Virus record (IMG/VR): IMGVR_UViG_3300018495_000088
Location: 32,001 to 96,000 of that record
DNA length: 64,000 bases
DNA from: a virus
Taxonomy: Duplodnaviria > Caudoviricetes
Strand: one strand, 5' to 3'
A program made the position numbers and the translations under genes. This document shows positions 26,180-43,933 of this stretch, in pieces. The notes beneath the pieces were generated by a model. The model saw only the letters and a program-made list of their open reading frames with translations, was not told where the DNA came from and did no database searches. Within the stretch, counting starts at the first letter, position 1, and each line of letters begins with the position of its first letter.

Positions 26180-26185
26180 AAGGAG

Positions 26186-26509
26186 ATGGCTAAAATGTAT
26201 TATAAGGTTTTAAAAAACAATAAAGTTATTGATGTTTTAGACCGTCTTGATTATGTTAAATATCAATCAAAGCATAAAGCTATGATTGTCTGCCCTCAAC
26301 ATGAGGCGCAGGCAATCATTTCTTCTGACGGCGAATATATTTGGCATGTGCGTGGATTATATAGGGTTCCCGTGGACGGCTACGACACAGTTGAGCTTTT
26401 TGAGATTGATGAATATGAGTATAGACAGTTAAAAGTACTAAACTTAAAGACTCCAGAGGAAATTATCGATGCATATACCTTGATGTTATTGGAGGGCAAT
26501 GTGTTATGA
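26186..26509 (+). CDS. Fibre assembly protein (XkdW-like position)
   Basis: Follows the fibre gene and precedes an XkdX-like gene; ends IIDAYTLMLLEGNVL. Confidence 0.6.
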   Translation: MAKMYYKVLKNNKVIDVLDRLDYVKYQSKHKAMIVCPQHEAQAIISSDGEYIWHVRGLYRVPVDGYDTVELFEIDEYEYRQLKVLNLKTPEEIIDAYTLMLLEGNVL

Positions 26510-26646
26510 ACCAATTTATAAAAAGCTTGACTAGATTATATCAGCATAATAAAGTTGACGAGAAAAAATTAAAAGAATTATTAACGAATAAAAAAATTAA
26601 TCAGCAGGAATACACTTATATTATTTCTGCTAAGAAGGCGGTGTAA
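26506..26646 (+). CDS. XkdX-like small protein (absent from ORF track)
   Basis: MNQFIKSLTRLYQ...KKINQQEYTYII; ATGA overlap with the upstream stop. Confidence 0.7.
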   Translation: MNQFIKSLTRLYQHNKVDEKKLKELLTNKKINQQEYTYIISAKKAV

Positions 26647-26647
26647 T

Positions 26648-27514
26648 ATGTACACTATTTTACTCGGCGAAAGTAATGAGCTTATAACAAGTGTGCGAGA
26701 AAGAATTATGCAGCGCAGCAAACTTGTCGATGCTCTTCATTTTCTTGTAGATCCCACATATAAAGGGATTGATATGTCAGACTTCACAGTGACGATGGAG
26801 TACGTTACGCCCGTTAGTAGAGAGTATCGAACTGAGACTCTTGTGAAGTCTGAGGCGCTGTATAAGGAAAGATTAGAATATAAACTTCCTTTTGATACCG
26901 ATTTAACTAAAGAAGCGGGTAAAATTGAAATAACACTTACATTTACTAAGGTAGAAATGGATCCTGATGGCAATGCTATACAGCGTGTTAGAAAAACAAG
27001 CCCCGCTACTGTTACAATTATTCCTTGCGCCGCTTGGTGCAATGTTGTTCCAGATAGTGCTCTTAGCGCCCTTGACCAGAGACTTCTTAAAGTTGATGCG
27101 GCCATTTCTGCCCTTAATGATATGAGTACTTATCTTGATGATAACAAAGCAGACAATATTATTATTGATATGGAGGCAAACACTATTCAGCTTACTGCAA
27201 ATGGAGCGCCCATAGGAGATAAATGCGAAATGCCTGCCAAAGGACATGATTGCGGCATCGAAAGCTTTGTTATTAGCGTAGATGATGAGATTATTATTAC
27301 TTTGACAACGGGTCAAGTTATTAATCTTGGTCAGGTAATCGGGGCGTCTGGCGCAACTTTTGTTCCGCATATTTCGGATGATCTTATTCTCAGCTGGACA
27401 AACGATAAAAACTTGGAGAACCCCAATCCCGTTGATCTTTCGCCTTTTAATGACTGGGTAGAGCTTGGCGACGATGGTGAAGAATCTACCCAGCATAATT
27501 GGGAATATATTTAA
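26648..27514 (+). CDS. BppU-like fibre anchor protein
   Basis: N-terminal YKGIDMSDF...LTKEAGKIEITLTF BppU-like domain; GATFVPHISDD..LSWTND fibre motif; ends NWEYI. Confidence 0.65.
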   Translation: MYTILLGESNELITSVRERIMQRSKLVDALHFLVDPTYKGIDMSDFTVTMEYVTPVSREYRTETLVKSEALYKERLEYKLPFDTDLTKEAGKIEITLTFTKVEMDPDGNAIQRVRKTSPATVTIIPCAAWCNVVPDSALSALDQRLLKVDAAISALNDMSTYLDDNKADNIIIDMEANTIQLTANGAPIGDKCEMPAKGHDCGIESFVISVDDEIIITLTTGQVINLGQVIGASGATFVPHISDDLILSWTNDKNLENPNPVDLSPFNDWVELGDDGEESTQHNWEYI

Positions 27515-27572
27515 TTGGTAATGACAGTTAAATCTGTTGTTATAAAATATTTTTAGAAAGGAAGGTGAAAAC

Positions 27573-28955
27573 ATGGCAAACGTGCGTTTTCTGAGTGTAA
27601 AATTACGCTCAACATTTGATGCGCTACTTACCAAAGAAGCAAATGCCTTGTATTGGATTGAGGAAACTCAAGAATTATACAAGGGCTCGACGCTTTATGG
27701 CACTGGTGCACTCGTAACGGATAAAGTCGCTGGACTTCTGTCGCCCGAAGACTATGTTAAGTTTCAGGAACTTACGGCTTCTGGTGGCGGACTTAGCAAT
27801 TTAAAGCCTGTTGATGGAACCATTAGTATTCTTGATGATGCTAATGGCGGCAAAACTATTAGCGTGGCTATCTCGCCTGACGTTGGAAACCAGCTTGTTG
27901 CTGTTGAAGGCGGTTTGTTCGTTCCTACGGCAGTTGTACCTGAGTACTCTATCGAGAGGCAGACAGAAGCAGAAGATGGGTTTGCAGTCAGCTATAAGCT
28001 GAAGAAGACTGTCGACGGCGTCGAATTCTATGTAGGAGACACTATTAACATCGCTCGCGACCTCGTATTGAAAAGAGCAACCCTTGAAACAGTAATTGAG
28101 GATGGTGTTCCTTATGAAGAGGCGAAAGTCGGTGATCCTTACATTAAAATGGAGTTTAATGATGCTAATACATCTAATCTCTATATTCCTGTTAAGGGTC
28201 TTGTAGACAATTATTCTGCGGGGTCTGGCATCGAAATTATTGATAACGAAATTAACATTAAGCTTGCCGATGTGTCTCACGGTCTGCATTTTGTGGACGG
28301 CGCTATGTCTCTTGCTCTTGCAACTCGCAAGGTTGATGGTGCTATGTCTAAGGAAGACAAACTTATCATTGATTCTATTCCTTCTGTTTATGTAGCACGC
28401 AAGTATGACATCACGGACACTCCTGAGGGAACACTTGTAAACTACGGTGAGAAGGAAATCCGTGTTATGTGTCCTGCTGATGCAAAATTCGTTAAACAAA
28501 CCGTTGGCGCCAATGGCAATCCCAATATGTATTATATGACATTCAAGGCGTATGCTCCTGAGGGTGCCGTAAGCTTTAAAGAGGGCGACAGAGGTGTTAT
28601 TATTGATGAAATACATACCTTCGATGATTCTGCTGCAGGAGTAGATGAGTTTGGTCGCAAATATAGCGTTGTTTGGCTTGCTCTCGCATCTTATGACCCC
28701 GCTTCTGATACTTGGACTTATTTTGGTAAGAATTCTTCTGAATCTAAGTATATTGGTTGGGATTACGTGGTAGAGTGGTATGGCGAGAACGGCAAGATTG
28801 CTTGCGATTCTATTCGTATCAATCTTAGTAATGAAGATTGTCATAACAATACTAAGCCTTACTATATGGCTAATTATGTCACCTCTGTTGAGGTAGACGA
28901 ACTCAAGGAGTCTGTTTATGAAATTGAACGGGCTAATACTTGGGGCGAATTATAA
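27573..28955 (+). CDS. Fibre segment protein
   Basis: Mtd_N-like N-terminus; AGLLSPED and DGAMSKEDK fibre motifs; ends TWGEL. Confidence 0.7.
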   Translation: MANVRFLSVKLRSTFDALLTKEANALYWIEETQELYKGSTLYGTGALVTDKVAGLLSPEDYVKFQELTASGGGLSNLKPVDGTISILDDANGGKTISVAISPDVGNQLVAVEGGLFVPTAVVPEYSIERQTEAEDGFAVSYKLKKTVDGVEFYVGDTINIARDLVLKRATLETVIEDGVPYEEAKVGDPYIKMEFNDANTSNLYIPVKGLVDNYSAGSGIEIIDNEINIKLADVSHGLHFVDGAMSLALATRKVDGAMSKEDKLIIDSIPSVYVARKYDITDTPEGTLVNYGEKEIRVMCPADAKFVKQTVGANGNPNMYYMTFKAYAPEGAVSFKEGDRGVIIDEIHTFDDSAAGVDEFGRKYSVVWLALASYDPASDTWTYFGKNSSESKYIGWDYVVEWYGENGKIACDSIRINLSNEDCHNNTKPYYMANYVTSVEVDELKESVYEIERANTWGEL

Positions 28956-29019
28956 TTAAATACTTAAACAATATTAATAATTATTAAAACAAAATTTTAA
29001 TTTTTAGGAGGAAATTATC

Positions 29020-31074
29020 ATGGCTAACGAAATGATCAAATTTTTAAGAGGTAACGTAGCTTCCCTTCCTGCAACTGCAACCCCTGGTGCAGTGTATTTT
29101 ACCAAAGATGAAGGTCTTTACCTTGGTCTTGAAGATGGTTCCTACCATCGTTATGGTGATTTTATCACTGTAAATGATGTAGCTTCCCTTCCTGCTGACG
29201 GCGCACATGAAACTTGCATGTATTACTGCGTAGCAGAAAATGTACTTGCTAAGTGGAATGGCTCTAGCTGGACCCAGATTAACAAGCAGAAGACTCTTGC
29301 AGAACTTGGTGGTGTAGCTAAGTCTGTTTACGAGGCTAAGATCGCTCTTCTTGAGAAGGCTGACTCTGATAACGCTACTGCTATTTCTGGTGTTGACACT
29401 AGACTTCAGGCAGCAGAAGAGAAGCTTAAGTCTGTTGCTACTACCGAGGGTCTTGGTGAACTTACTGATCGTGTAACCACTGCAGAGGGCGATATCGATG
29501 ACCTTGAGGCTGCTATCGGTGAAGGTGGTTCTGTAACCCTTGCTATCGCTGATGCTAAGCAGGCTGGTCTTGATGCTAAGGCACTTGCTGAGACTAAGAC
29601 TACTATGGCTGAGGTTGAAGCTAAGAACTATGCAACCAAGGAAGAAGCTAAGGGTTATGCAGATGCTAAGGATACTGCTATTGGTAATGCTCAGGCCAAG
29701 GCGGACGAGGCTTATACTCTTGCTAGTGGCAAGGCTACTATGGAAGAAGTTAACACCGCTATTGGCAATGCAGGTCACGCTGTAAAGTCCGAGGTTGACC
29801 AGGCTATTGCTGATCTCGATGCTGCTTATAAGAAGGCTGACGGCGACATGAAGACCGAGCTCGAAGGCAAGATTGGCGCAAAGGTTGACCAGTCTGCTTA
29901 TGATGCTAAGGTTGCTGAGCTTGTTGGTGCCGACACTACCCTTCAGGGTAACATTGATGCTCTTGCTGGCAAGGTTGGTACTCCTACCGAGGGCAAGACC
30001 ATCGTTGAGATGATTGCAGACGCTCAGACTGCTGCTACTTACGATGACACTAAGGTTAAGGAAGACATCAAGGCTAATGCTGATGCTATTGATGCAATCG
30101 AAGCAGATTACCTGAAGAAGGCTGACAAGGATGGTCTTCAGGAGCAGATTACTGCCAACGCTAATGCGATTACTCTTCTGACTAACGGTGTATCCGCAGA
30201 AGAGGTTGATGGTGTTAACGACCTTATCCAGTATGTTAAGGAGCATGGTCCTGAAGTAACTGGTATGAAGGAAGACATTGCCGATAACGCAAAGGCAATT
30301 TCTGACCACGAGACTCTTGCTGCTGAGACTTATGAAACTAAGACAGATGCTGGCAATAAGCTTACTGAGGCTAAGGGTTACACCGATACCGAGGTAGCTA
30401 AGGACAGAGCAAGACTTGATGCTCTTGAGCTGATTGACCATGACCACTCTAACAAGGGTGTTCTTGACGGCATTACCGCCGAGAAGGTATCCGCTTGGGA
30501 TGCATCTGAGCAGAATGCTAAGGATTATGTTGATGGCAAGATTACCGATCTGAAGATTGGTGACTATGCTAAGCAGTCCGACCTTGATACTCATACTGGA
30601 GATACTGTTGCTCACATCACTGCTGCAGAGCGTGAAGCTTGGAACAAGGCAGAACAGAATGCTAAGGACTATGCAGATGGTCTTGCAGGCAACTATGCCG
30701 AAGCTGAGCACGAGCATGTAGTTGCTGATATTACTGACTTCGAGGATACAGTAGAAGCAAGAATTACCGCTAAGGGTTATGCTACTACTGGTTATGCAGA
30801 CGACAAGGCTTCTGCCGCTCAGTCTGCTGCTGAAGCAAAGGCTGCAGAACTTGATTCTGCGCTTAAGACTGAACTTGAGGGCAAGATTACTTCTGGTGAT
30901 TCTGCTACTCTTGCTTCTGCCAATGCTTATGCCGACACTGCTAAGAGCGAGGCAATTGCTGCTGCTAAGACCGAGACCGAGTCTCAGGTTAAGGCTCTTG
31001 CTGAGGGTCAGGTTACTACTAACAAGAATGACATTGCAAGTCTGTTTGAGCAGCTTCAGTGGGGTTCTTTTTAA
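29020..31074 (+). CDS. High-expression coiled-coil fibre protein
   Basis: IKFLRG...GAVYF N-terminus; AKxYAD repeats; ends QWGSF; capsid-like codon bias. Confidence 0.8.
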   Translation: MANEMIKFLRGNVASLPATATPGAVYFTKDEGLYLGLEDGSYHRYGDFITVNDVASLPADGAHETCMYYCVAENVLAKWNGSSWTQINKQKTLAELGGVAKSVYEAKIALLEKADSDNATAISGVDTRLQAAEEKLKSVATTEGLGELTDRVTTAEGDIDDLEAAIGEGGSVTLAIADAKQAGLDAKALAETKTTMAEVEAKNYATKEEAKGYADAKDTAIGNAQAKADEAYTLASGKATMEEVNTAIGNAGHAVKSEVDQAIADLDAAYKKADGDMKTELEGKIGAKVDQSAYDAKVAELVGADTTLQGNIDALAGKVGTPTEGKTIVEMIADAQTAATYDDTKVKEDIKANADAIDAIEADYLKKADKDGLQEQITANANAITLLTNGVSAEEVDGVNDLIQYVKEHGPEVTGMKEDIADNAKAISDHETLAAETYETKTDAGNKLTEAKGYTDTEVAKDRARLDALELIDHDHSNKGVLDGITAEKVSAWDASEQNAKDYVDGKITDLKIGDYAKQSDLDTHTGDTVAHITAAEREAWNKAEQNAKDYADGLAGNYAEAEHEHVVADITDFEDTVEARITAKGYATTGYADDKASAAQSAAEAKAAELDSALKTELEGKITSGDSATLASANAYADTAKSEAIAAAKTETESQVKALAEGQVTTNKNDIASLFEQLQWGSF

Positions 31075-31101
31075 TAGAATCTAAATATAAATAAACTTAA
31101 T

Positions 31102-31132
31102 AGGCTAGTGGGGAAACCCACTAGCCTTCTTT
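31102..31132 (+). terminator. Rho-independent terminator
   Basis: AGGCTAGTGGG-GAAA-CCCACTAGCCT followed by TCTTT. Confidence 0.8.
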
Positions 31133-31164
31133 AAAAAAAATAACCGAATGACGAGGAAACAACG

Positions 31165-31831
31165 ATGGCAATACTTAAACCGCTTAGAGGACACAGTTCC
31201 TCATTGAATGCACGACCCTTATGTGACGGTTCTATTTATTTTTGCGTTGATACTGGCCTGTTGTATGTTGATTGTGAAGACGACAAAGGTAATTTGGTGC
31301 GTTTAAATGTGCTTGCGGATCGTGCCAATAAAGTAGGATATACGATAGACGATGTAGACGTAGAGATCAAAGCCTCAGAAATAGCTACTAAGGAATATGT
31401 GCGTGGGTTATTGATGGATAATGGAAATTTTACCAAAGAAATTATTTTTGAAATGATTTACCCCTGTTGGTTCCATTTATATATCGACATCAGATGTATC
31501 TCCGTTAGTTTTGTTTGGATTTGGTTCTTGGGAGAAAATTGAAGACAGATTTTTACTTGCGTCAAGTTCTACTTATTCAATTAATACTGAGGGCGGCGAA
31601 GCTACCCACACATTGACAGTAGATGAGATGCCTACGCACGCACACGATTTCAATAGACATCAATTATGGACTACGGAAACTGCGCCCGAAACCAGTTTGG
31701 AACAAGGTTATGGCGTCACTAACAAATCCGTTGCGATTTATAGAGATACGACCACAACTGCGGGGAGCGGAATGTCTCACAATAATATGCCTCCGTATCT
31801 TGCGGTAAATATATGGAAAAGAGTTAACTGA
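31165..31831 (+). pseudogene. Short fibre with T4 gp10 C-terminal-like baseplate domain, split by a +1 frameshift at 31461-31464 (programmed shift, mutation or sequencing error)
   Basis: Removing one C of CCCC joins the two ORFs and restores IYPVGSIYIST...FGFGSWEKI...GGEATHTLT.DEMP.H.H...HNNMPPYLAVNIWKR. Confidence 0.85.
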
Positions 31832-31993
31832 TATATTTATTTTATAAAAATAGAATTTTTGGGCATATTTAATGCTTAAAACTTGAAAATTACAAATAAT
31901 TAATTTTGAAAACAACAGTTGGCTTTGTAGTCAGAGACACGAAGAAAACTTTTTATATAAAGCCAACATTCTTACTTAGAAGGGAGAATAGAA

Positions 31994-34900
31994 ATGGCAC
32001 TTTGGAAACCATTTAGAGGCAGTCGTGCAGATTTAGATGCTGTTGCTAAACGTGACGGTTATGTTTATTTTTGTGACGATGGAGCCTTATTCTTTGATTA
32101 TACAGATAAAAATGGTAATCTACAAAGAAAACAAATTAACGCTAAAGACGCCGAAACGCTTACAGGCATGTCTTTAGATCAAATTCAAAAATCCATCTCT
32201 TGGAACGACCTGCTTAACAAACCCGAACTTGGTCTTATTGCCGTATATGACGAAATTAGCAAAGGTCTTCTTACCGAAGATGTTCAGGAAACTCTTGATA
32301 AGATAGATACTATCGAGAGCGTTTATGAAACAAAGACTGGCTCTTCGATAAAATTAGATGAAGCTAAGGCTTATGCTGACGCTAACCTTGAAACTGCAAA
32401 GTCTTACACTGATGAGAAAATAGCAAACATTCCAGCTGTAGATTCTTATACCAAACCAGAAATTGATGCCGCTTTAGAAAACAAAGCAAACAACGATCAC
32501 GATCATGATGATATTTATTATACAGAAGCAGAGATTGATGTAAAGCTTTCTGGCAAATCCGACACTGGTCATACTCATAGCAATTATGCACCTACTTCAC
32601 GAACTGTTAACGGAAAAGAACTTTCTTCCAACATTACCCTTTCTGCTTCTGATGTCGGTGCTGATGCAAGCGGTTCTGCTAATACAGCTTTAAATTCTGC
32701 AAAGTCTTATACCGACGATGCGATTGAAGCACTTGGCGATACTTATTACACCGAGGCAGAAATTGATACAAAGCTTGCATCTAAATCGGATTCAACACAT
32801 AATCACGACTCTAAATACGACACAAAGGGTTCTGCTTCTGCTGTTCAAACAAATTTAGATGTAGTAAGCGATACACTCGATTCTCACACAGACGATTCTG
32901 ACATCCACGTAACTACAACAAATAAGTCTAACTGGAATACTGCTTATACTCATTCTCAATCTACTCATGCAAGAACAGATGCAACAAAAGTCGCAGATTC
33001 CACAACTAATGGTAATATTCTTATCAATGGAAGTGAAACAAATGTTTACACACATCCCAACTCTGGCGTAACTGCTGGCACTTATAAGAGCGTGACAGTA
33101 AATGCACAAGGTCATGTTACTGGCGGTACGAATCCGACTACATTGGCTGGATATGGAATTACCGATGCCGAGACTAAGGGTGCGGCAAGTAGTGCTCTTG
33201 CAAGTGCAAAAGAATATACGGACTCTGTAGCATCTGGTAAAGCTAATACAAACCACAATCACGACACTACTTATGATAAAAAGGGTGCTGCTGATAGCGC
33301 ATTGGCTTCTGCAAAATCCTATGCTGATTCTGCCGCTACTACTGCTGCAAATGCTGTTAAGAATGACCTATTAAACGGTGCTGGCACAGCTTATGATACT
33401 CTTAAAGAACTTGGTGATTTGATTGACGACAATGCAGATGCGATTGATGCGCTTGAAACTGTTGCCGCTGGCAAAGCTGACAAAACTCATACTCATGCGA
33501 TTTCGGATGTATCTGGTCTTCAGTCTGCTCTTGATGGTAAGGCAGCCTCTTCTCACGGAACACACGTTTCTTATAGTGCTACGGCTCCTGTAATGGACGG
33601 TACTGCAAGCGTTGGCACCGCAAGTACCGTTGCAAGAAGCGACCATAAACATCCTACCGACACAAGCCGTGCATCTAAAACAGAATTTGATTCTCATACA
33701 AGCAATACAACAGCGCATATTACTTCAACAGAAAGAAGCAATTGGAATGCTGCTAAGACACACGCTGATTCCGCTCACGCACCTTCTAATGCTGAAAAGA
33801 ATCAGAACGCATTTAGCAATATTAAGGTAGGTTCTACTACCGTCGCTGCTGATGCTGCAACTGACACTGTTGAGTTTGTAGGCAGCAACGTCACTATTAC
33901 TCCTGATACGACTAATGACAAAGTGACCTTTACTGTTGCTGATGGTAGCACAAGTGGAAAGGGTGTTGTACAACTCACCAACAGTACATCAAGCACTTCT
34001 ACTACTACCGCTGCAACACCAAGTAGTGTTAAATCGGCTTATGATTTAGCAAATACTGCTAAGACAAATGCTGCAACCGCACAGTCTAGAGCGGATAGCG
34101 CTTATTCTTTGGCTGAAGGCAAAGTTGATAGTTTATCAGACTTAGGTGTAACTGCTACCGCTACCGAGTTGAATTATGTTGATGGAGTAACTTCAAATAT
34201 TCAGACTCAACTGGATGGTAAGGCACCTTCTTCTCACAATCAATCCGCTAGTACTATCACAAGCGGAACTTTATCTTCTGATAGATTGCCTACCGTTCCG
34301 ATTTCTAAGGGTGGCACAGGTGCAACAACTGCGGCTGGTGCTCTTACTAATTTAGGAATTACAGCTACTGCTGCGGAACTGAACAAAATGGATGGTGTAA
34401 CAGCTACAACAACTGAGCTTAACTATGTGGATGGAGTTACAAGTAATATTCAGACGCAGTTGGATGGAAAATTGGATAAAACAACAAAATACGCTGGTAG
34501 TTCAAGCACAGGTGGTGCTGCTAATAGTGCAGTTAAAGCAACTCAAGACGGCAGTGGTAATACTATTACAAGTACTTATGCAACAAAGGCTGAATTAGAT
34601 TCAGCTAAATCAAGCTTGCAAACTTCTATTAACGGAAAAGCAAATAGTTCGCATATACATTCTATTTCTAATGTAACTAATTTACAAAGTTCATTAGACG
34701 CAAAACAAGCAACTGTCACAGGTGCTGCGACAACTATCACAGGTTCCAATCTTACCGCTTCAAGAGCTTTAATTTCTAACTCTTCTGGTAAGGTTGCGGT
34801 TTCAGACATAACATCCACGGAATTAGCGTATTTGGACGGCGTTACAAGTAACATCCAAACACAACTTGATGCCAGGGCAAATAAGTCAGATATTGCAACA

Positions 34901-35905
34901 ACGATAATGCAGGGTACTGCTACCCAAAATACTACCTATTGGAAAATCTCTGGTTTCGGCAATTGGGGCACAGGAACATGGATGCAAAAAGGTTTTTCCA
35001 TGCTTATCACTTCAAGAGCGGGCGAAATGGTTTGGGTTAGCCTTGCAGCAAACGACTCTAATACAAGTGCGGGAGCTATTCGTCTTATCAACCGATATTC
35101 CAAGATCGCTGCGATACATTACAGTGTTTCGGAAAGCGCAATTTATGTAACTGCAGCTGGCTGGGCTAATAATATTTGTGCTCATATTCTCTCTAATGTA
35201 AATGGAGATTATGTGCCTACCATTGCAAGTGCAAGTGCCTTGCCAAGTGATGCAGTTTCAATTAATATTATAGAATTTGGTATTGACGGTACAGGCACTG
35301 TCGTTGGAGATAATTCAGTGCCTCTTGCAATGGGCGGCTCCACAACAAGACCAACCTATAATAGTAAAGACCTTGCTTTAAAGAGTGACGTCGATGCCAT
35401 TACGCTAGACACTCTAGGTGGAAATGATAGATATTATACTGAGTCCGAGATTGATAGCAAGGTGTCAACTTTGAACACCGCTATTAATGGCAAGGCAGCG
35501 TCTTCTCACACTCACGATGACAGATATTATACAGAAGCAGAAATCAACGCCAAGGTGGACACTTTAAATACTGCTATCGCTGGCAAAGCTCCAAGTGTGC
35601 ATAGTCACGGTCATATACAAGATGGTACTGTAGGTATGAAGACTTCAGATTCCAATGAAGTGAGTTTTTCGTCTAACGCTAATTATATCTATTTTGGATA
35701 TGACAATCGCATGGGTTCAACTGGCATAGTTGATACTTATAAGTTCGGAAAACATAGCGGAACAGCTAGTGCTGCAGATGGTAATATCGAATGTGGTTCA
35801 TTGGCAGCAGGAAGAACTCTTAAGGGTGGAACTGTAACTGTCGGCAACGCAGCTACATTACAATATGATTCTACAAATCAATGTCTTAACTTTGTATTCG
35901 GATAA
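31994..35905 (+). CDS. Long tail-fibre-like protein with HxH and GVTSNIQTQLD repeats
   Basis: WKPFRG N-terminus; about 10 HxH motifs; YYTExEI repeats; gpH-like KGVVQLTNS..AATP repeat. Confidence 0.85.
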   Translation: MALWKPFRGSRADLDAVAKRDGYVYFCDDGALFFDYTDKNGNLQRKQINAKDAETLTGMSLDQIQKSISWNDLLNKPELGLIAVYDEISKGLLTEDVQETLDKIDTIESVYETKTGSSIKLDEAKAYADANLETAKSYTDEKIANIPAVDSYTKPEIDAALENKANNDHDHDDIYYTEAEIDVKLSGKSDTGHTHSNYAPTSRTVNGKELSSNITLSASDVGADASGSANTALNSAKSYTDDAIEALGDTYYTEAEIDTKLASKSDSTHNHDSKYDTKGSASAVQTNLDVVSDTLDSHTDDSDIHVTTTNKSNWNTAYTHSQSTHARTDATKVADSTTNGNILINGSETNVYTHPNSGVTAGTYKSVTVNAQGHVTGGTNPTTLAGYGITDAETKGAASSALASAKEYTDSVASGKANTNHNHDTTYDKKGAADSALASAKSYADSAATTAANAVKNDLLNGAGTAYDTLKELGDLIDDNADAIDALETVAAGKADKTHTHAISDVSGLQSALDGKAASSHGTHVSYSATAPVMDGTASVGTASTVARSDHKHPTDTSRASKTEFDSHTSNTTAHITSTERSNWNAAKTHADSAHAPSNAEKNQNAFSNIKVGSTTVAADAATDTVEFVGSNVTITPDTTNDKVTFTVADGSTSGKGVVQLTNSTSSTSTTTAATPSSVKSAYDLANTAKTNAATAQSRADSAYSLAEGKVDSLSDLGVTATATELNYVDGVTSNIQTQLDGKAPSSHNQSASTITSGTLSSDRLPTVPISKGGTGATTAAGALTNLGITATAAELNKMDGVTATTTELNYVDGVTSNIQTQLDGKLDKTTKYAGSSSTGGAANSAVKATQDGSGNTITSTYATKAELDSAKSSLQTSINGKANSSHIHSISNVTNLQSSLDAKQATVTGAATTITGSNLTASRALISNSSGKVAVSDITSTELAYLDGVTSNIQTQLDARANKSDIATTIMQGTATQNTTYWKISGFGNWGTGTWMQKGFSMLITSRAGEMVWVSLAANDSNTSAGAIRLINRYSKIAAIHYSVSESAIYVTAAGWANNICAHILSNVNGDYVPTIASASALPSDAVSINIIEFGIDGTGTVVGDNSVPLAMGGSTTRPTYNSKDLALKSDVDAITLDTLGGNDRYYTESEIDSKVSTLNTAINGKAASSHTHDDRYYTEAEINAKVDTLNTAIAGKAPSVHSHGHIQDGTVGMKTSDSNEVSFSSNANYIYFGYDNRMGSTGIVDTYKFGKHSGTASAADGNIECGSLAAGRTLKGGTVTVGNAATLQYDSTNQCLNFVFG

Positions 35906-35917
35906 GGAGGTGTCCAT

Positions 35918-38900
35918 ATGAGTTTACAAGTATGGTTGCCTCTAAATGGTAATCTAGAAAATCTTGGATTGTCGGATTTATCCTTCAGAGTTGTTAACTA
36001 CAGCAATGCTATTAGTTCAGCAACTTCTGGCGGTAAAGTCGTTTCTGGATTATACAAAAGAACTACTAAAGAAACGGCTGATTATATTATCAGCGATAAA
36101 AATATTACATTAGATGGCGATGTAACAATGTGTTGTTGGGCTAAAGTAACTGGAATTGGTTATAGTGGAACAGCAAACGGCCTCTTTGGGCAGCATGGGC
36201 ATCAAACAGGTGGACTGGGTATCACGATGAAGGATGTTAGCTCTACTGACTTACGAATGAGCGTCAATACAGGTTTATATGGCGACAGTCATGGTGGCTC
36301 TAGTGACAGAACTTATTGCACATATTACGGTTCAACTAACATTTATAATGCGTGGCATCATTTATGTTTAACTTATGATAGTAAAACAAAACAGTTACGC
36401 ATGTATGTAGATGGCAAATTAGAGAATATTCAAGGTTGTGGCTCTTATGCTACGCTAAATGGTAATAACATTACTCCCAGACCTGTAATCTTATTTGCTT
36501 GGTCTACTGACCACCTTAGCTCAAGTATTGTAAATTATCGTCCACCTTGTGAACTAAATGATGTTCGTATTTATGACCATGTGCTGTCCGTCAAAGAAAT
36601 TAAAGAGATATCTAAAGGTCTTGTTGCTCATTATCAGCTAAAACCCACTAATATCACAAATTATGCAAAGAGTACTCCGTTCAGTATTTATAATAACTAT
36701 GGAGTAGGAGCAACTTTAACACAGTTAAGTGAACGATTTATGGGTTATCCTGTTTATAGATTAACAATGACTCCTACTAGTGCAAGTGTTAGTAGTTTTC
36801 AAACCGAGTTGTGGTCACATGGTGTGTGTCATGGTCGGTGGACATTTAATGCAAACACAAAATATTGTTACTGGTTATACTATAGACCTGTTAGCCACAA
36901 TGATATTCGAGCAGGTGGCACAGCAAGTAATATTAATGGATGGACAGAGATTGCTCCTCAATATATTGAAGATGGCTGGTATAGAGTTGGTCAATATAGA
37001 AACGGTAGTGTTACTTCAACTCAAGCAGATGACATATATACGTCATTTATAACTCCTTCAGCAGCAGCTGGTGTTCCAATTACTATTGATTTTTGTGCTC
37101 CGCATCTAATTGGTGGGTTATCTGAGATTATTGAGACTTACGATGGAGTAGTAGCTGAGGATAACAAAGTACACGATGTATCTGGCTATGGTAATCATTT
37201 AAATATTACTGGTTCAATTGCAGCAAATAGTACAAGTCCGAGATACAGTAACAGTCTTGATTTTAATCAAACTGGTTATCTAAAGAAAACAGACTTTAAC
37301 ATGACCACGAATGAGTTTACCATCACATTCTGGTTGAATCCTCCCTACTCAATCAACGCACAACATTTTATATGTGGTACATTTAATAGCTGGACTGGTA
37401 ACGGATTCGGTATGTGGAGAGACAGCACAGGTGGTGGATATAGTTTGCTGTATAGGTCAAATAGTGAGGGTGGTCACACAGGGCTCCCAGCAGTTACGCC
37501 TCCTCATGATACATGGAGTCATATAGCAATTGTTTACACTGGCACTCAAGGTATTGTTTATCTGAACGGGGCCGAAGTAGCTAGAGTAAATGGTGGCTCA
37601 AGTGGCACAGTGTCACACCCTGTTCTTTATTTAGGTAACTCAATGTATAGTGAGGTTGCATCACAAACAGATGAAGCATCTATGTCTGACTTCAGATTCT
37701 ATGCTACAGCGTTATCAGCTTCTGATATTGAAGGATTATATAAACACGGTGCTTCTATAGCAAAAGATGGCACCTTATTCGCATACGACTTTAACGAGTT
37801 CAATCCAAATGCAAAAAGTGGTGTTGATAAAGATGGTACTGCTTCTAGTTGCAGTCTTAACACTAAAGTAAGTCCTACTGCGGACATGAAGCTTAAAACT
37901 TTAGAAGATGGTTCTTCTTGGGCAAGAATACATTATTTGGATCTAACAAATGATAAAACATTCTTTGCTAATGCTGCTGAGGTTGCTAAATGTAGTAGAA
38001 ACAATCGTTTTAGCCGTATGAGAGATGTTGATAAGTTTAAGAGTCAACCCTCCCTTTCTAGTGGTTATACTGAACTTGAGTATATTCAGTCTAGCGGAAC
38101 ACAGTATATTAATACTGGAATTGCTCCAACAAGCGATATGAAGGTTGAAATTTCCTTTATACCTACAAATGGATTAACAGAACATTCAATTTTTGGTTCG
38201 TCTTGGGCTGTAGATGGATTCTTCCTAATGATTTATCAAGGAAAAATTAGATTCCATTCAGGTGGTTCAGTTATTGATGCTGTTTCATGTTCAGCAGGAA
38301 ACAGATATATAATGGAATGTACAAACAGTTATATTAAAATCAACGGTACCAGTTATAGCATTTCAGGTGGAGCAAATACTGCTAATAATATCCTTCTTCT
38401 TGGCGACATGGGATACAACGAAAGTTGTCGTGGTATTGGTAAAATTGAATACGCTAAGATATGGGCAGATGGTAAACTCGTTCGTAACTTTGTTCCTTGT
38501 AAAAATGCAGGTGGCACAGTTGGTTTATATGATTTAGTTGAAGATAAATTCTACACTAATGCAGGAAGTGGCTCGTTCACAGCAGGTACTTTTGTAAGTA
38601 AGTATGAGTTCATGTTAACTTATCCAGCCCTATCCAGTACTGAATATAATAGATGGACTCAGACATCATCACCTAATGCTACGTCCGTTACAGGATATAC
38701 CCCTATCCATATTGCTTGGCCAGCTCACAGTGCAGGTATTCGCAAACATGGTAGTGCTTCTTTGTACAACTGTGACAGTGGTGACACTTGGTATGCTCCT
38801 ATTGGACAGTATAGTATTTGGGAAGGTGGCATTCCCGCGGCAAATGGAAATATGCAACTTCAAACAGAACTTTGGGTTAGAACAGATAAATCTGCTGATG

Positions 38901-38959
38901 CTACTCAAACAAAAATTTATGATGGTACTATAGTAGCATCAAACTTTATTGAATTATAA
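35918..38959 (+). CDS. Multi-lectin adhesin (two LamG domains, CBM-like insert, fibrinogen-like domain)
   Basis: WLPLNGN...WHHLCLTYD...LNDVRIYDHVLS; second LamG WSHIAIVY...MSDFRFYATALS; C-terminal DGSSWARI/KYEFML/NRWTQ/GGIP. Confidence 0.8.
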   Translation: MSLQVWLPLNGNLENLGLSDLSFRVVNYSNAISSATSGGKVVSGLYKRTTKETADYIISDKNITLDGDVTMCCWAKVTGIGYSGTANGLFGQHGHQTGGLGITMKDVSSTDLRMSVNTGLYGDSHGGSSDRTYCTYYGSTNIYNAWHHLCLTYDSKTKQLRMYVDGKLENIQGCGSYATLNGNNITPRPVILFAWSTDHLSSSIVNYRPPCELNDVRIYDHVLSVKEIKEISKGLVAHYQLKPTNITNYAKSTPFSIYNNYGVGATLTQLSERFMGYPVYRLTMTPTSASVSSFQTELWSHGVCHGRWTFNANTKYCYWLYYRPVSHNDIRAGGTASNINGWTEIAPQYIEDGWYRVGQYRNGSVTSTQADDIYTSFITPSAAAGVPITIDFCAPHLIGGLSEIIETYDGVVAEDNKVHDVSGYGNHLNITGSIAANSTSPRYSNSLDFNQTGYLKKTDFNMTTNEFTITFWLNPPYSINAQHFICGTFNSWTGNGFGMWRDSTGGGYSLLYRSNSEGGHTGLPAVTPPHDTWSHIAIVYTGTQGIVYLNGAEVARVNGGSSGTVSHPVLYLGNSMYSEVASQTDEASMSDFRFYATALSASDIEGLYKHGASIAKDGTLFAYDFNEFNPNAKSGVDKDGTASSCSLNTKVSPTADMKLKTLEDGSSWARIHYLDLTNDKTFFANAAEVAKCSRNNRFSRMRDVDKFKSQPSLSSGYTELEYIQSSGTQYINTGIAPTSDMKVEISFIPTNGLTEHSIFGSSWAVDGFFLMIYQGKIRFHSGGSVIDAVSCSAGNRYIMECTNSYIKINGTSYSISGGANTANNILLLGDMGYNESCRGIGKIEYAKIWADGKLVRNFVPCKNAGGTVGLYDLVEDKFYTNAGSGSFTAGTFVSKYEFMLTYPALSSTEYNRWTQTSSPNATSVTGYTPIHIAWPAHSAGIRKHGSASLYNCDSGDTWYAPIGQYSIWEGGIPAANGNMQLQTELWVRTDKSADATQTKIYDGTIVASNFIEL

Positions 38960-38974
38960 GGAGATGATAAATAA

Positions 38975-39214
38975 ATGCAAGTAAAAGATTTAATTGTTAC
39001 TGGCAACGCTAGAATTCTCGGCAACCTATATACTAATACTAAGATTACGGTAGATTCTGCATTATCTAACACGTCTATTAATCCTGTTCAAAATAAGGTT
39101 ATAAAGGCTGCGTTAGATGCCAAGGCACCCGCATATACCTATGGCACAGCAGATGTTACTGTGGGTGGTACAAGTAGTGCGGCCACAGGCACATTACATT
39201 TTGTATATGAATAA
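38975..39214 (+). CDS. Small fibre linker protein
   Basis: DLIVTG.AR N-terminus; VDSALS.TS.NPVQNKVI fibre motif; ends GTLHFVYE. Confidence 0.75.
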   Translation: MQVKDLIVTGNARILGNLYTNTKITVDSALSNTSINPVQNKVIKAALDAKAPAYTYGTADVTVGGTSSAATGTLHFVYE

Positions 39215-39225
39215 GAGGTGAGATT

Positions 39226-40434
39226 ATGGCTAAAAAAATGCTTTTAACCATAGATGGCACCTATAGAAATATAAAAAAAGCCTACATTACTGTGAACGGT
39301 GTTTATCATAAAGTGAAAAAGGCATTTATTACTGTAGGCGGTGTTTATCACCCCGTATGGAACGCCAATCCTACCTCTGAACCCACTTATTGGGGCACTT
39401 CAGAGAATTTATATGCCCCAGTAAGTCAGCTAGCAGCAACTTCTGTTGGTAATTACGCCTTATTTGGTGGAGGGTATGATCCTAGCCTTGATAACAATGA
39501 AGCTTTCTCAAGATGTGAGGGCTATAGTTCATCACTTACACATACAAGCCTAACGCCTTTGAATGCGACATCATATTCGGCTCTTAGGCTCGCTGCAACT
39601 ACTGTTGGAGGATATGCCATATTCGGTGGTGGCGAGAGCGATACGCTCGATACTCTTGATTTGATAAATGACTTTGCAAATAATCACATAACGGCATACA
39701 ATACTTCATTGACAGACCAAGGTACTCTAACTAATAGTAGACTTGGTGTTGAAGCCTCTAGGTTGGCGGCTACGACGGTTGGCAATTATGCTTTGTTCGG
39801 AGGCGGATATAATAAATGGCACGTATTTGAAAATTGGCAATATAAAACCAAGGAAGCCTGGCAAAATCATGTGACGGCATATAATTCCTCACTGACAAAA
39901 TCTGTGCCAGGCGGATTAAACTTGGGAAGACGCGGTTTGGCTGCAACAACTGTTGGAAATTATGCTTTATTTGGTGGTGGAATTCAAAGCGGTACAACCA
40001 GTAGTATTGTTGATACATATAACACATCTTTGACCAAAGGAACGGCAACTTCTTTGTCCGTACCAAGAGATGACTTAACCGCTACGACAGTTGGTGGATA
40101 TGCAATTTTCGCGGGAGGTTGGAATGATGGCGACGTGAATACGGTTGATGCATATAATACGTCTTTAACAAGGGTGTCCTGCTCACCGCTGCAAACTGCT
40201 CGTGATAAACTTAATTCAACTACCTTGGGCGATTTCGCATTCATTGGATGTAGTGAAGCAACTACAAATATTGATGTGTATGACAAAAATTTGACAAAAG
40301 TATTTATTTTACAAACACTGCAAGCAAGATGTTTTTACGGGGCGGCCACAATTGGCAACTATGCTTTGTTCGGTGGTGGCGACGTAACGGGTATCGGCGT
40401 GACCGCAAGAGTCGACGTTTTTACTATAGTTTAA
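39226..40434 (+). CDS. Kelch-like beta-propeller protein (putative receptor-binding tip)
   Basis: About seven LAATTVGNYALFGGG repeats; N-terminal KKAYITVNGV repeats. Confidence 0.85.
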   Translation: MAKKMLLTIDGTYRNIKKAYITVNGVYHKVKKAFITVGGVYHPVWNANPTSEPTYWGTSENLYAPVSQLAATSVGNYALFGGGYDPSLDNNEAFSRCEGYSSSLTHTSLTPLNATSYSALRLAATTVGGYAIFGGGESDTLDTLDLINDFANNHITAYNTSLTDQGTLTNSRLGVEASRLAATTVGNYALFGGGYNKWHVFENWQYKTKEAWQNHVTAYNSSLTKSVPGGLNLGRRGLAATTVGNYALFGGGIQSGTTSSIVDTYNTSLTKGTATSLSVPRDDLTATTVGGYAIFAGGWNDGDVNTVDAYNTSLTRVSCSPLQTARDKLNSTTLGDFAFIGCSEATTNIDVYDKNLTKVFILQTLQARCFYGAATIGNYALFGGGDVTGIGVTARVDVFTIV

Positions 40435-40457
40435 CTTATTAAAAAGGAGATAACAAA

Positions 40458-40889
40458 ATGAAAAAATATGCAATTTGGAATAAAACCGATCCAATTATTA
40501 CGCCTATTGGTGAAGTATTAACAGCAGAACAATGGATTGACAGATATCCTGTTGCAGGCGTAGAATCTATTACAGTGTTATGCGCTGCAGGTGAAATTAA
40601 TGGTGCATTTTTTGGAACTTTAGGTCAGGTCGTCGAAGCCTACGAAGACCAAGGTTGCGATTTTTCTGAATGTACCACGCCAGAGGAAAAATTAGCAACA
40701 ATCGAGGCTTTTGATGATGCTAAAGCGGCAGAAAAGATTGCGGCACAAGTAGCTTCTCAGGAGGCGGCCAAGGTGGCGGCCGAAGAAGAGAGAGCCAATG
40801 CTGAATTAACAGCTATGTCTCTTGCAAGTATCGCAGCTAGTATGGAGTATCAGAACATGTTAACACTTGATGATGCTGAGGAGGTGTAA
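40458..40889 (+). CDS. Fibre assembly protein (XkdW-like position)
   Basis: SD AAAGGAG; C-terminal helix; precedes xkdX. Confidence 0.6.
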   Translation: MKKYAIWNKTDPIITPIGEVLTAEQWIDRYPVAGVESITVLCAAGEINGAFFGTLGQVVEAYEDQGCDFSECTTPEEKLATIEAFDDAKAAEKIAAQVASQEAAKVAAEEERANAELTAMSLASIAASMEYQNMLTLDDAEEV

Positions 40890-40891
40890 TC

Positions 40892-41023
40892 ATGAATTAC
40901 GAAAGAGTAAAGTATTACTACGAAGCAGGTCTTTGGAGTCTTCCTATGGTGAAAATGGCCGTTCGTAAGGGTGTTATTACTAGAGAGCAGTATAAAGAAA
41001 TTACAGGAGTAGAATATAAGTAA
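40892..41023 (+). CDS. xkdX: XkdX family protein (absent from ORF track)
   Basis: MNYERVKYYYEAGLWSLPMVKMAVRKGVITREQYKEITGVEYK*; SD GGAGGTG. Confidence 0.85.
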   Translation: MNYERVKYYYEAGLWSLPMVKMAVRKGVITREQYKEITGVEYK

Positions 41024-41038
41024 TTCTATCCAAACTAT

Positions 41039-41072
41039 AAACCCATAGAGTAACCCTCTATGGGTTTCTTTT
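41039..41072 (+). terminator. Rho-independent terminator
   Basis: AAACCCATAGAG-TAACC-CTCTATGGGTTT followed by CTTTT. Confidence 0.8.
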
Positions 41073-41092
41073 AAGAAAGGAGTTGATACAAA

Positions 41093-43933
41093 ATGGCAAA
41101 AAAATATCTTGTACAACACCGCAGAGGCACCATTCAAGAATGGGAAAACGATGCCATTGTCCCACTTGAGGGTGAGATTGTCATTGAAATTGATTACATC
41201 AACTCATTGCACAAACTCAAAATTGGTGACGGTGTGCATTCATATGCGGAGTTAAAATATTTACAAGCAGGCGGAGATCCTGTTATTCAAGAATTAATTA
41301 AAATTTTGCCCCGTGTTGTTACGGTCACATTGGATGTAAACCGATGGGCAAAGAACGAAAATAGTTCAGCTTGTTTCAGTCAGACCGTGGCGTTAGATAA
41401 AATAACCTCGCGTAGCCGACTAGACTTGCAACCAGACACAGATATGCTTAATGAATTTAAAGAACTGGGCGTATCTTTCGTAACTGAAAATCAAAATGGC
41501 ACTCTTTGGGTGCACTCGGTCGGAGCTAAGCCGACCACTACATATATAATGCAGGCTACAATTGTCGAAACTGAAGTAGAGGTAGAGCTTGAGAAGATAG
41601 TCGGTACGCCGATTGGAGTTACAAATCCTCATAAGCAACCCGACTGGAACCAAGCCGATCCTACACAGCTAGACTTTATATATAATAAACCTATCTTTGG
41701 CGGATTTGCGTTCAAAGATGTGATAACTTGGGCAGATCTCCCAGAGGATGTTCGGGCGGCTTTAGATAAAGCTAATTCAGCGTTGCAGCCTTACACGGAG
41801 TCTGACCCGACCGTGCCCGCTTGGGCGAAGAATCCTACCAAGCCCACATACGCTGTTAATGAAATTGCTGGAGCTCTCGCATATACTCGGCAAGAGCTTA
41901 CCGAGGAGCAGAAAGCACAGGTGCGTTCTAATATCGGCGCAGGCGCGAGCAGTTTCTCTGGTGATTATAATGATTTGATTAATAAACCTTTTATTCCCTC
42001 CGTAGATGGATTAGTGACAAGGGAATATGTCGATGAAGAGCTTAGTTATAAGGTGGATAAAGTTTCGGGTAAAGGATTGTCTACGAATGACTTCACAAAT
42101 GCCTATAAGAAGAAAATAGATTCGGCATTACAGTCGTATACCGAGTCTGATCCCACCGTTCCCTCTTGGGCAAAAGCTTCGGAAAAACCTACATATACGG
42201 CAAATGAGGTGGGAGCAATTTCGTATAATACCGCCCAGAATTTAACTGAGGCTCAAAAGGCCCAAGCAAGAGCTAATCTCGGCACGACTATTGGAACTCC
42301 CGCGCCTCCAGGTGAGGATGGATACTCTCCGAGCGCAAAGGTAATAAAGACTGGGAAAACTGCAACTATAACAATCACCGATAAAACAGGCACCACAACA
42401 GCAAGTGTAAGTGACGGTGCAGATGGTGTAGATGGTGCAGACGGTACTTCCGTAGCCATTGAAAGTATTACCGAAAGTGACGTGGACGGCGGATTAAATG
42501 TTGTAACTTTCTCAGATGGCAAGACGCTGACAATTAAAAATGGTTCTAGCGGCGTGGGCTCCGATGGTAACGATGGCGAGAACGGTATAAGTCCTACGGT
42601 TGCGGTTAGCAAAATAGGAACCACAACTACTATTGCTATCACAGATGTTAACGGCACTCAAACAGCGACTATTAACGACGGTGAAAAAGGAGAGGACGGA
42701 CAATCATGTACTCACTCTTGGAATGGTACGACTCTTACTGTAACATCTGCAAGCGGAACATCCTCTGCAAATCTTAAGGGAGAGAGCGGTACATCTGTTG
42801 TCGTTAGCAACGTCTCTACTTCTTCTGTGGATGGTGGATCTAATGTTGTAACATTTTCAGATGGCAATACTTTGACTATTAAGAATGGACAAAGAGGATC
42901 CGATGGTTCATCTATTTCTATCTCATCGATTGAAGAGGTTGGTGGCTATCAAGAGGGAAAAGTCATTCTTGGTGTAGAAAAAATAACTTCCGATACCTAT
43001 GCGAATGGAGTTACCTATGTAGACGAAAAGTTTATTCTACTTGACATCTATCCGAAACCCAACGGTACGGTTATGGTTACCTACGGCGGGCTAACAAAGA
43101 CGATTACTGATACAAGTGGGGCGGAAAGCCCGAGTGCACAACGAGTATTCTTCGGCACTTTCAATGGTGTCTCAGATGAAGTGATAACCCCTACATCAGG
43201 CAGATTGACGATTGAGGGTGATTATAATAGTTTTGGCTGTGGTGTCTTTTACTCTTCTGGACAAGTATCTACTGCGGGTTCTTGCGTGATAGCAGTCATA
43301 AATTGTGGACACATTAAATTTATTCCAGACAACGCATTTTCCGATTGCAAAAAGCTAACAGACATAGAAATTCCGTATGATGTAGAGATGATCGGCCATA
43401 TGGCATTTGCAAATTGTACTAGCCTTAAGAATGTAAAACTCCCTGATAGTGTGGCGCATATTGGAGTTATGGCGTTCTGTAATTGCACAAGCCTATCAAG
43501 TATTGTAATTCCAGCCAGCGTAACAATTATTGAGATGTTCGCTTTTGTTCTTGATTCAGGTTATAGTAGAACTGTTTTTATGAAATCTACCATTCCCCCG
43601 ACTTTTCCTGATGGGGAATTTGGTCAGTTTGCCACAGATGGTACACATAAAATTGTAGTACCTTATGGTTACGCCGAAATATATAAAACCACAAGTGATT
43701 GGAGCGGATATGCGAACTACATCATTGAAGGTGATACTAATAATATTTTTGCCGAAGACGATGGTAGTGCTAATATCATAACATTTTCTGATGGTAAAAC
43801 TTTGACTATTAAGAATGGTACAAAAGGATCTACTCCTATTAGGGGCGTAGATTATTATACCGAGGCAGATAAACAAGAAATGATTAATCTTGTTCTTGCC
43901 GCACTTCCTGAGTGGAAGGGAGGTAGTTACTAA
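41093..43933 (+). CDS. Fibre with Mtd_N-like N-terminus, collagen-like triplets and BspA-type LRR domain
   Basis: QHRRGT..W...GE...KIGDG; GxDG triplets; IPDNAFSDCKKLTDIEIP / IG.MAF.NCTSL..V.LP repeats. Confidence 0.85.
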   Translation: MAKKYLVQHRRGTIQEWENDAIVPLEGEIVIEIDYINSLHKLKIGDGVHSYAELKYLQAGGDPVIQELIKILPRVVTVTLDVNRWAKNENSSACFSQTVALDKITSRSRLDLQPDTDMLNEFKELGVSFVTENQNGTLWVHSVGAKPTTTYIMQATIVETEVEVELEKIVGTPIGVTNPHKQPDWNQADPTQLDFIYNKPIFGGFAFKDVITWADLPEDVRAALDKANSALQPYTESDPTVPAWAKNPTKPTYAVNEIAGALAYTRQELTEEQKAQVRSNIGAGASSFSGDYNDLINKPFIPSVDGLVTREYVDEELSYKVDKVSGKGLSTNDFTNAYKKKIDSALQSYTESDPTVPSWAKASEKPTYTANEVGAISYNTAQNLTEAQKAQARANLGTTIGTPAPPGEDGYSPSAKVIKTGKTATITITDKTGTTTASVSDGADGVDGADGTSVAIESITESDVDGGLNVVTFSDGKTLTIKNGSSGVGSDGNDGENGISPTVAVSKIGTTTTIAITDVNGTQTATINDGEKGEDGQSCTHSWNGTTLTVTSASGTSSANLKGESGTSVVVSNVSTSSVDGGSNVVTFSDGNTLTIKNGQRGSDGSSISISSIEEVGGYQEGKVILGVEKITSDTYANGVTYVDEKFILLDIYPKPNGTVMVTYGGLTKTITDTSGAESPSAQRVFFGTFNGVSDEVITPTSGRLTIEGDYNSFGCGVFYSSGQVSTAGSCVIAVINCGHIKFIPDNAFSDCKKLTDIEIPYDVEMIGHMAFANCTSLKNVKLPDSVAHIGVMAFCNCTSLSSIVIPASVTIIEMFAFVLDSGYSRTVFMKSTIPPTFPDGEFGQFATDGTHKIVVPYGYAEIYKTTSDWSGYANYIIEGDTNNIFAEDDGSANIITFSDGKTLTIKNGTKGSTPIRGVDYYTEADKQEMINLVLAALPEWKGGSY

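Follow-up and report, generated by a model that had tools for sequence, protein, structure and literature searches.

How do fibre proteins encoded side by side in a phage genome come to be joined in a defined order? The question is raised by a locus in a 64,000-nucleotide stretch of DNA (the window), positions 32,001 to 96,000 of the IMG/VR virus record IMGVR_UViG_3300018495_000088 (Duplodnaviria; Caudoviricetes), which is 109 kb long, has 121 open reading frames (ORFs) and an estimated completeness of 63%. An earlier inspection of the letters of this DNA (the sequence-only reading) had described three consecutive proteins with similar tryptophan-containing C-termini (Trp tails), followed by proteins with related N-terminal domains, and had proposed that each C-terminal strand completes the N-terminal domain of the next subunit. 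The ORFs, C-terminal peptides and N-terminal sequences on which this proposal was built are all encoded where it had placed them. The conservation of the Trp tails and their adjacency to the domains are real, exceed chance and extend well past this genome. The best-supported explanation, to which we assign a probability of about 0.5, is a multi-tier fibre in which the Trp tail of each protein would dock on the N-terminal domain of the next tier. The elements from which this argument starts are the following (window positions).

26648..27514, + strand: P0001, BppU-like anchor of 288 amino acids (aa), ending NWEYI
27497..27511, + strand: P0001 tail NWEYI, family consensus Y-x-W-E-[FY]-[IL]-COOH
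27573..28955, + strand: P0002, putative second-tier fibre protein of 460 aa, starting MANVRFLSVK and ending TWGEL
27573..27704, + strand: predicted N-terminal attachment domain of P0002, class 'SVKL..LYWI' (profile match, AlphaFold2 (AF2) model)
28938..28952, + strand: P0002 tail TWGEL, family consensus Y-[TS]-W-G-E-[LM]-COOH
29020..31074, + strand: P0003, predicted coiled-coil stalk of 684 aa, starting MANEMIKFLRG and ending QWGSF
29020..29373, + strand: putative N-terminal attachment module of P0003, class 'MIKFxRG' (residues 1-118, invariant columns M5 to N118)
31057..31071, + strand: P0003 tail QWGSF, family consensus L-T-W-G-[SE]-F-COOH

All three tails are strongly conserved within large protein families. 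For P0001, 2563 homologues were found, and 106 of the 120 best matches end in W-x-x-hydrophobic, with the consensus [ST]-[EDQ]-Y-x-W-E-F-I; W285 never varies, and two positions before it a single majority residue (Tyr in the consensus) occupies 98% of the rows. The P0002 family (1692 homologues) has the consensus S-Y-T-W-G-E-[ML], shows this type of ending in 111 of the 120 best matches and keeps W457 invariant. A search with the N-terminal 90 aa of P0003 returned 386 homologues; 114 of the 121 best matches end in W-x-x-hydrophobic, and both W681 and F684 are invariant. The ending is thereby present in 88-94% of homologues in all three families. In the tail conservation alignments, which comprise 94-120 homologues per family, the motif forms the exact C-terminus of the protein, and the linker of 15-25 residues before it is 20-60% conserved in each of the three families. 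Across the whole record, 4 of the 121 ORFs end in W-x-x-[LIVMF], namely the consecutive P0001, P0002 and P0003 and the major capsid protein. The resemblance of the three C-termini thus withstands scrutiny, both as a run of three consecutive genes among 121 ORFs and through the invariant Trp in their families.

The tails are attached to bodies of different design. In the AF2 model of P0001 (predicted local distance difference test score, pLDDT, of 71.6), an immunoglobulin (Ig)-like ring domain (residues 1-130) is followed by a helix (141-166) and a beta C-domain (170-252), while the tail (271-288), which comes after an acidic linker, is disordered in the monomer (pLDDT <50), as expected for a docking peptide. 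P0002 is modelled as an N-terminal domain (1-44), a beta-rich middle, a globular domain (277-420) and a helix (438-454), with the tail motif directly after this terminal helix; residues 5-44 of the monomer model form a strand, a helix and three strands (pLDDT 76-89). A Foldseek search with the P0002 model returned generic Ig-like matches only. In P0003, the conserved N-terminal module (1-118) and the tail occupy the two ends of the protein, and the middle is variable and rich in Ala, Lys and Glu.

The view of P0001 as a BppU-like anchor was taken from the sequence-only reading, and it holds for the predicted fold of the N-terminal domain. Foldseek ranked TP901-1 baseplate BppU chains at the top (E 1e-5, probability 1.0), although the alignment over whole BppU chains has a low TM of 0.28. 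The VIA Z values are 9.0 for a chain of the 80alpha baseplate (6v8i_AM), 8.8 for TP901-1 BppU (4v96), 8.6 for the BppU N-terminal domain (3uh8) and 8.6 for NF5, followed by a drop to 6.8. Pfam BppU_N did not match P0001, nor did any other Pfam family at E <= 0.01. Ring domains like that of P0001 are also found at phage necks (VIA rows 5 and 8), and the gene comes after the tube gene and before the tape measure gene.

The second half of the proposed device is a small domain at the N-terminus. Besides P0002 and P0003, it is carried by two putative tip genes and by a fibre gene further downstream.

31165..31831, + strand: P0004, short putative tip gene in two frames (domain at 31165-31341; other frame from ~31511, Gp10_C)
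31994..35905, + strand: P0005, long putative tip fibre of 1303 aa, starting MALWKPFRG and ending LNFVFG
31994-32170, + strand: predicted N-terminal domain of P0005, class 'MALWKPFRG', followed in the protein by phage fibre repeats and no Trp tail
41093..43933, + strand: P0010, fibre with an Mtd_N-type N-terminus (residues 7-48) and BspA-type leucine-rich repeats (LRR_5, E 2.4e-21)

Within the record, a profile of this domain matches exactly five proteins, P0002, P0003, P0004, P0005 and P0010, in each case from residue 1. An alignment of seventeen N-termini, taken from the window and from three related loci, extends over ~55 residues, with the approximate pattern M-A-x-x-hydrophobic-K-F-x-R-G, a short helix, and then G-x-hydrophobic-Y-hydrophobic-x-x-D-x-G-x-hydrophobic-Y. 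Among 1.84 billion representatives, the profile matches ~2300 protein clusters, 270 of them at E <= 1e-10, and the best 150 of these clusters almost all show a match that begins at residue 1. The P0003-type and P0005-type domains were linked by hhalign at 93.8%. That the N-termini encoded at 27573, 29020, 31165 and 31994 are related, as originally proposed, is supported by these comparisons, which place them in what appears to be one family sited at residue 1. Two loci extend the family to phages with recoded stop codons, because the domain genes L030:770-1633 and L031:141-668 match database proteins only when TAG is read as Gln.

Class and C-terminus go together in this family. WG[SET]F closes the full-length proteins of the MADMIKFYKG type, and those of the MAL[WF]KPFRG type, with wholly different bodies of 90 to 1600 aa, lack the Trp motif at their end. 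The tip-type relatives of the P0005 domain likewise have hypervariable bodies, and none of them (~110) has a W-x-x-hydrophobic end; proteins with the domain and without the tail are what a chain model predicts for tips. P0004 is less simple. Its first-frame ORF (31165-31542, 125 aa) starts MAILKPLRG and matches the domain profile at 5.6e-22, and its second frame matches PF21939 (Gp10_C, E 1.7e-11), the same end being found in P0398, a relative that appears unbroken. The split would be due to a frameshift mutation or else to a programmed shift.

The sequence-only reading had suggested that the co-occurrence of tails and domains be checked in adjacent genes of related genomes, and this check gave a clear association. 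Among 427 unique neighbouring + strand gene pairs from related loci and the genome itself, a strict Trp tail was followed by a domain in 25 cases and by no domain in 15, and genes without a strict tail were followed by a domain in 25 cases and by none in 362 (Fisher p = 1e-16, a value that overstates independence because the pairs share ancestry). Under a relaxed definition of the tail, 38 of the 50 domain genes are preceded by one. The cases of a tail without a domain are mostly the capsid protein or pairs with an inserted ORF between the two genes. Tail classes also track domain classes across the related loci:

MALWKPFRG-type domain: preceded by WG[SET]F in 9 of 13 cases
MIKFxRG-type domain: preceded by W-x-E-[LMI] in 8 of 10 cases, and never by an F-ending tail
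LYW/LYFI-type domain: preceded by W-[EKQDT]-x-[ILMF]
LYFC-type domain: preceded by acidic or extended tails (WEEE, WTEE, WEEDV, WEPMV, WESMA)
Mtd_N-type domain: preceded by a Trp tail in 0 of 5 cases

Read in the other direction, the correspondence is complete for two classes: all nine WG[SET]F tails that lie directly before a domain gene precede a MALWKPFRG-type domain, and all eight W-x-E-[LMI] tails precede a MIKFxRG-type domain. The class of the anchor tail agrees with the class of the next domain in 33 of the 33 anchors with a known neighbour. The same rule is followed by carriers that are not orthologous to the window proteins, since a 520-aa protein of L034 that ends AWGEL and lacks the domain precedes a MIKF-type gene, and in L001 an extra 618-aa protein ending SWGTF precedes a MALFKPFRG gene. 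In a more distant, TAG-recoded phage, a partial upstream protein that is BppU-like by eye ends LYWIEP before a domain gene.

Codon usage sets one of these proteins apart. With the capsid and tube genes as the reference for the codon adaptation index (CAI), P0003 reaches 0.73, compared with 0.79-0.80 for capsid and tube themselves, 0.73 for a decoration-like gene and 0.25-0.46 for all others; the anchor P0001 has a CAI of 0.37 and P0002 one of 0.46. AAG makes up 0.97 of the Lys codons in P0003, all of them (1.00) in capsid and tube, and 0.13-0.63 elsewhere, the decoration-like gene aside. The same holds in relatives: in five phages (the one studied here and four others), P0003-type genes have a CAI of 0.66-0.79 vs ~0.4-0.55 for neighbouring fibre genes. 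These capsid-level codons in five phages suggest that P0003 is very abundant and that the virion is unusually rich in fibres. The four further stalk genes, and a hairpin past P0003 that is the strongest terminator-like site in 26000-41200, are located as follows.

L001:11252-13723: P0003-type stalk gene
L006:11960-13753: P0003-type stalk gene
L015:10001-12145: P0003-type stalk gene
L017:10001-12133: P0003-type stalk gene
31102..31127 of the window, no strand assigned: G+C-rich terminator-like hairpin with an 11-bp stem and 7 G-C pairs, 28 nucleotides past the P0003 stop

According to the assembly proposed here, a large siphovirus-like gut phage would build a multi-tier fibre that starts with the BppU-like anchor P0001 and continues with P0002 and P0003. 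At each joint, a terminal Y-x-W-x-x-hydrophobic-COOH peptide at the end of a variable linker would dock on the ~55 aa N-terminal domain of the following protein. The anchor tail W-E-[FY]-[IL] would be matched to the P0002-type domain, the P0002 tail W-G-E-[LM] to the P0003-type domain, and the P0003 tail W-G-[SE]-F to domains of the P0004/P0005 type, and tips, having the domain and no tail, would end the fibre. One peptide may hold one trimer, in which case the structure would branch threefold at every tier, like the BppU-BppL tripod. A branching fibre is favoured over a strict 1:1:1 chain because the codons of P0003 are optimised like those of capsid and tube. Of the modular chain originally envisaged, the succession of Trp tails and domains and the tail-less tips stand, and the linear order fits poorly with the capsid-level codons of P0003. 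A more far-reaching version, which we regard as speculative and rather unlikely, would have the large uncultured siphophages of a widespread gut clade build a hierarchical branching fibre 'tree' with one peptide per next-tier trimer. The peptide and domain classes would then act as a code for tier order, architecture and copy numbers would be readable from gene termini, and the rise in CAI from 0.37 through 0.46 to 0.73 (anchor, P0002, P0003) would correspond to a threefold amplification per tier.

Several observations weigh against the docking of tails on next-tier domains. The major capsid protein (12773-13879) has, in several related phages, a conserved G-V-W-E-I-[IV] as its last residues, and the bare W-x-x-hydrophobic pattern is therefore not specific to fibres. 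In two relatives the P0002-type protein ends GIGKII or GIGQVI, with no Trp, in two others a 240-aa protein ending TIYQW stands before a domain gene, and in some relatives a MIKF-type domain comes after proteins ending GIGKII or TIYQW. On the tree of the anchors, the tail class has undergone no more than 2-4 switches, the sign test falls short of significance, and synteny by itself could generate tail-domain adjacency. The codon usage of P0003 makes an equimolar 1:1:1 linear chain unlikely, and codon adaptation is low in the tips, the parts that would have to be most numerous in a branching model. A separate matter is the relationship of the attachment domains to Mtd_N, which is a weak lead only. 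Similarity to the Mtd N-terminal domain had been part of the sequence-only reading, and in its favour a language-model search placed residues 1-60 of P0005 nearest to Mtd_N clusters (0.91, 142/256 features), and Pfam Mtd_N (PF18454) matched P0010 at 22.9 bits (E 8e-5), which is below the curated cut-off of 26.3. On the other side, no Pfam matches were obtained with the N-terminal domains carried by P0002 to P0005, and the Mtd_N matches among the 17 aligned members number three, all of the QxRRG type. Comparison of three domain classes with five Mtd_N-type sequences by hhalign gave probabilities <1%, the short profiles having low sensitivity. Sequence searches of solved structures with class I domains returned nothing significant, the only match being that of P0010 to the HylP-type chain 6x3m (E 0.004).

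Alternative roles for the tail have to be set against these data. It might cap its own trimer internally or act as the folding nucleus of that trimer, as the foldon does in T4 fibritin, with each protein attached independently to the virion via its N-terminal domain and with gene adjacency resulting from shared ancestry and synteny. The tails of P0002 and P0003 do lie directly after a predicted helix or coiled coil, paralogous fibre genes are commonly found side by side, and the covariation of classes comprises few independent events. A trimer cap would, however, be hard to reconcile with an anchor tail that follows a disordered acidic linker rather than a coiled coil, with tip proteins of the same family that lack the tail, with the retention of the motif at the exact C-terminus, and with tail classes that differ systematically according to what follows, even on non-orthologous carriers; we consider it improbable, though it deserves to be taken seriously. 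The mutual resemblance of the three tails could also arise if all of them bound a common third component, such as a tail hub or an assembly chaperone. A small ORF directly 5' of the anchor gene (26186-26509; 104-107 aa, no assigned role) is conserved before the anchor in most relatives, including L002, L005, L008 and L034-L038, and is a possible candidate for an assembly factor; the chaperone in question could be this 107-aa protein. Nothing ties this ORF to the tails, though, and a single partner would not need tail classes that are tightly and differently conserved, with F, L/M or I/L as the last residue and G or E after the Trp, which makes this explanation quite unlikely.

P0003 carries both elements, so it might alternatively polymerise head to tail, via its own tail and its own N-terminal domain, into a long filament capped by tips. 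The capsid-level codons in five phages, the hairpin 3' of the gene and the homology between its domain and the tip domains preceded by WG[SE]F tails (the hhalign match given above) would all suit such a filament. However, the last residue of tails before MIKF-type domains is L, M or I, never F, and the invariant F of the P0003 tail therefore indicates that it is meant for another domain class, so that self-polymerisation appears doubtful, and somewhat more so than a shared third component. Least credible of all is that the termini resemble one another by chance or through a recombination linker at the DNA level that serves no function in the protein. Short motifs can recur, as the capsid protein illustrates, but the background is ~1/118 ORFs and the motif is carried by three consecutive genes, the Trp is invariant over hundreds of diverged homologues while its neighbours vary, and no nucleotide-level similarity of the region to known phages was found by Megablast and tblastn in 50,697 phage records. 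In the same records, tblastn and Megablast searches with P0002 and with the N-termini of P0005 and P0003 yielded nothing.

The scheme of C-terminal strands completing the domain of the next subunit had also been extended to the genes that come after P0005.

35918..38959, + strand: P0006, 1013 aa with two LamG-type lectin domains (PF13385, E 3.5e-31, two stretches), ending SNFIEL
38975..39214, + strand: P0007, 79 aa, ending GTLHFVYE
39226..40434, + strand: P0008, 402 aa with seven Kelch-like repeats by eye (phrog_19111)

Pfam Kelch gave no match with P0008, and IMG/VR yielded no relative of P0006. The hydrophobic endings LNFVFG, SNFIEL and LHFVYE that had been regarded as further plugs are all present, and LHFVYE is the only one seen to recur: in the form GTL[YH]FV[YV]E, it also closes P0263 and P0348, and a related 26-aa motif, 'D-x-N-T-L-Y-F-V', is Pfam PF24243 (Phage_tail_C). 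This ending precedes a P0008-type N-terminus in L032 (1006-1737) and a different N-terminal type, like that of the 43933 gene, in L033 (124-600). It is thus followed by two different N-terminal types, and the extension of the scheme to the later genes has support only in part. The P0010 gene has no Trp tail before it.

The remainder of the window places the fibre genes in their genomic setting.

6685: terminase
8755: portal
12773-13879: major capsid protein
17648: tube-like protein
19079-26179: 2366-aa adhesin with a C-terminal DUF6273 and a weak CotH match (E 9e-4)
45775-51288: 1837-aa protein with a Peptidase_S74 intramolecular chaperone domain at its end (1732-1784)
between the 1837-aa protein and the tape measure protein in the gene list: amidase
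53769-63926: tape measure protein, 3385 aa, with PhageMin_Tail at 1520-1738

Relatives of the phage are 140-175 kb in size, and the record is present in public animal faeces metagenome runs. None of the genes tested was seen to be a sheath gene, which gives the phage the look of a siphovirus, and one with a very long tail: the 3385-aa tape measure protein points to an exceptional tail length. Unusually, the fibre cluster has the tube gene on one side and the tape measure gene on the other. A Peptidase_S74 end is typical of self-cleaving fibres or spikes. DUF6273, a C-type-lectin-like domain and a known target of diversity-generating retroelements, forms the end of the 2366-aa adhesin; a search of the 109 kb record for a matching template repeat of such an element found none.

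If the tail-domain pairs dock as proposed, the order of fibre assembly could be read from protein termini, even in uncultured phages, and the domain is carried by at least 2300 protein clusters. The pair would also be a small, portable peptide-domain device for swapping receptor-binding tips between phages in laboratory strains, and would supply a concrete partner motif for an Mtd_N-like attachment domain, whose binding mode has so far been presumed.

The closest known counterpart is the tripod of the TP901-1 and Tuc2009 baseplates. P0001 shares with BppU the predicted fold of the N-terminal domain, which in the P0001 model is followed by a helix and a beta C-domain, BppU holds the N-termini of receptor-binding trimers, and TP901-1 BppL starts with MASIKKVYRG, which resembles the first strand of the window domains. 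Each TP901-1 BppU chain carries a single BppL trimer via I219, F226 and F232 (PMC10747895), and the 25 residues by which Tuc2009 BppU is extended at its C-terminus complete a beta-sheet of BppA (PMC4742702). Unlike the proposed device, TP901-1 BppU binds through internal hydrophobic residues of a folded domain and not through a terminal Trp peptide; it ends GYVFVA and supports one tier only, compared with at least three putative tiers using the same device here. In Mtd of Bordetella phage BPP-1 (PF18454) and the HylP-type prophage proteins, too, a trimeric receptor-binding protein begins with a small domain, and the N-terminal prism of Mtd is presumed to attach it to the fibre (PMC10743442). 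However, Mtd_N-type genes in the phages compared here are never preceded by a Trp tail (0/5), and the literature search found no description of a partner motif for Mtd_N.

More distant parallels concern the principle rather than the parts. In the long tail fibre of T4, gp34, gp35, gp36 and gp37 from adjacent genes join end to end; there is no sequence relation to the window proteins, and no pair of terminal peptide and domain is repeated at each joint. In branched tailspikes (CBA120, G7C, and the adaptors of K1-5/SP6), N-terminal adaptor domains set the order of spike on spike and allow alternative tips, but the holder uses gp10-like or XD domains instead of a C-terminal peptide, and no homology was seen. 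Chaperone-usher pili share the idea alone that a terminal strand of one subunit completes the domain of the next: their donor strand is N-terminal, their acceptor an incomplete Ig fold and their subunits monomers, whereas in the present case the donor would be C-terminal and the acceptors trimeric, and incompleteness of the acceptor domain is hypothetical. As a concept, the attachment of a fibre to an anchor has clear precedents in BppU-BppL/BppA, in Mtd on BPP-1 fibres and in the T4 long fibre, which qualifies the remark in the sequence-only reading that it knew of no description of such an assembly grammar. What is unusual here is the repetition of a terminal peptide and domain code over successive tiers, together with an unexplained high-copy stalk.

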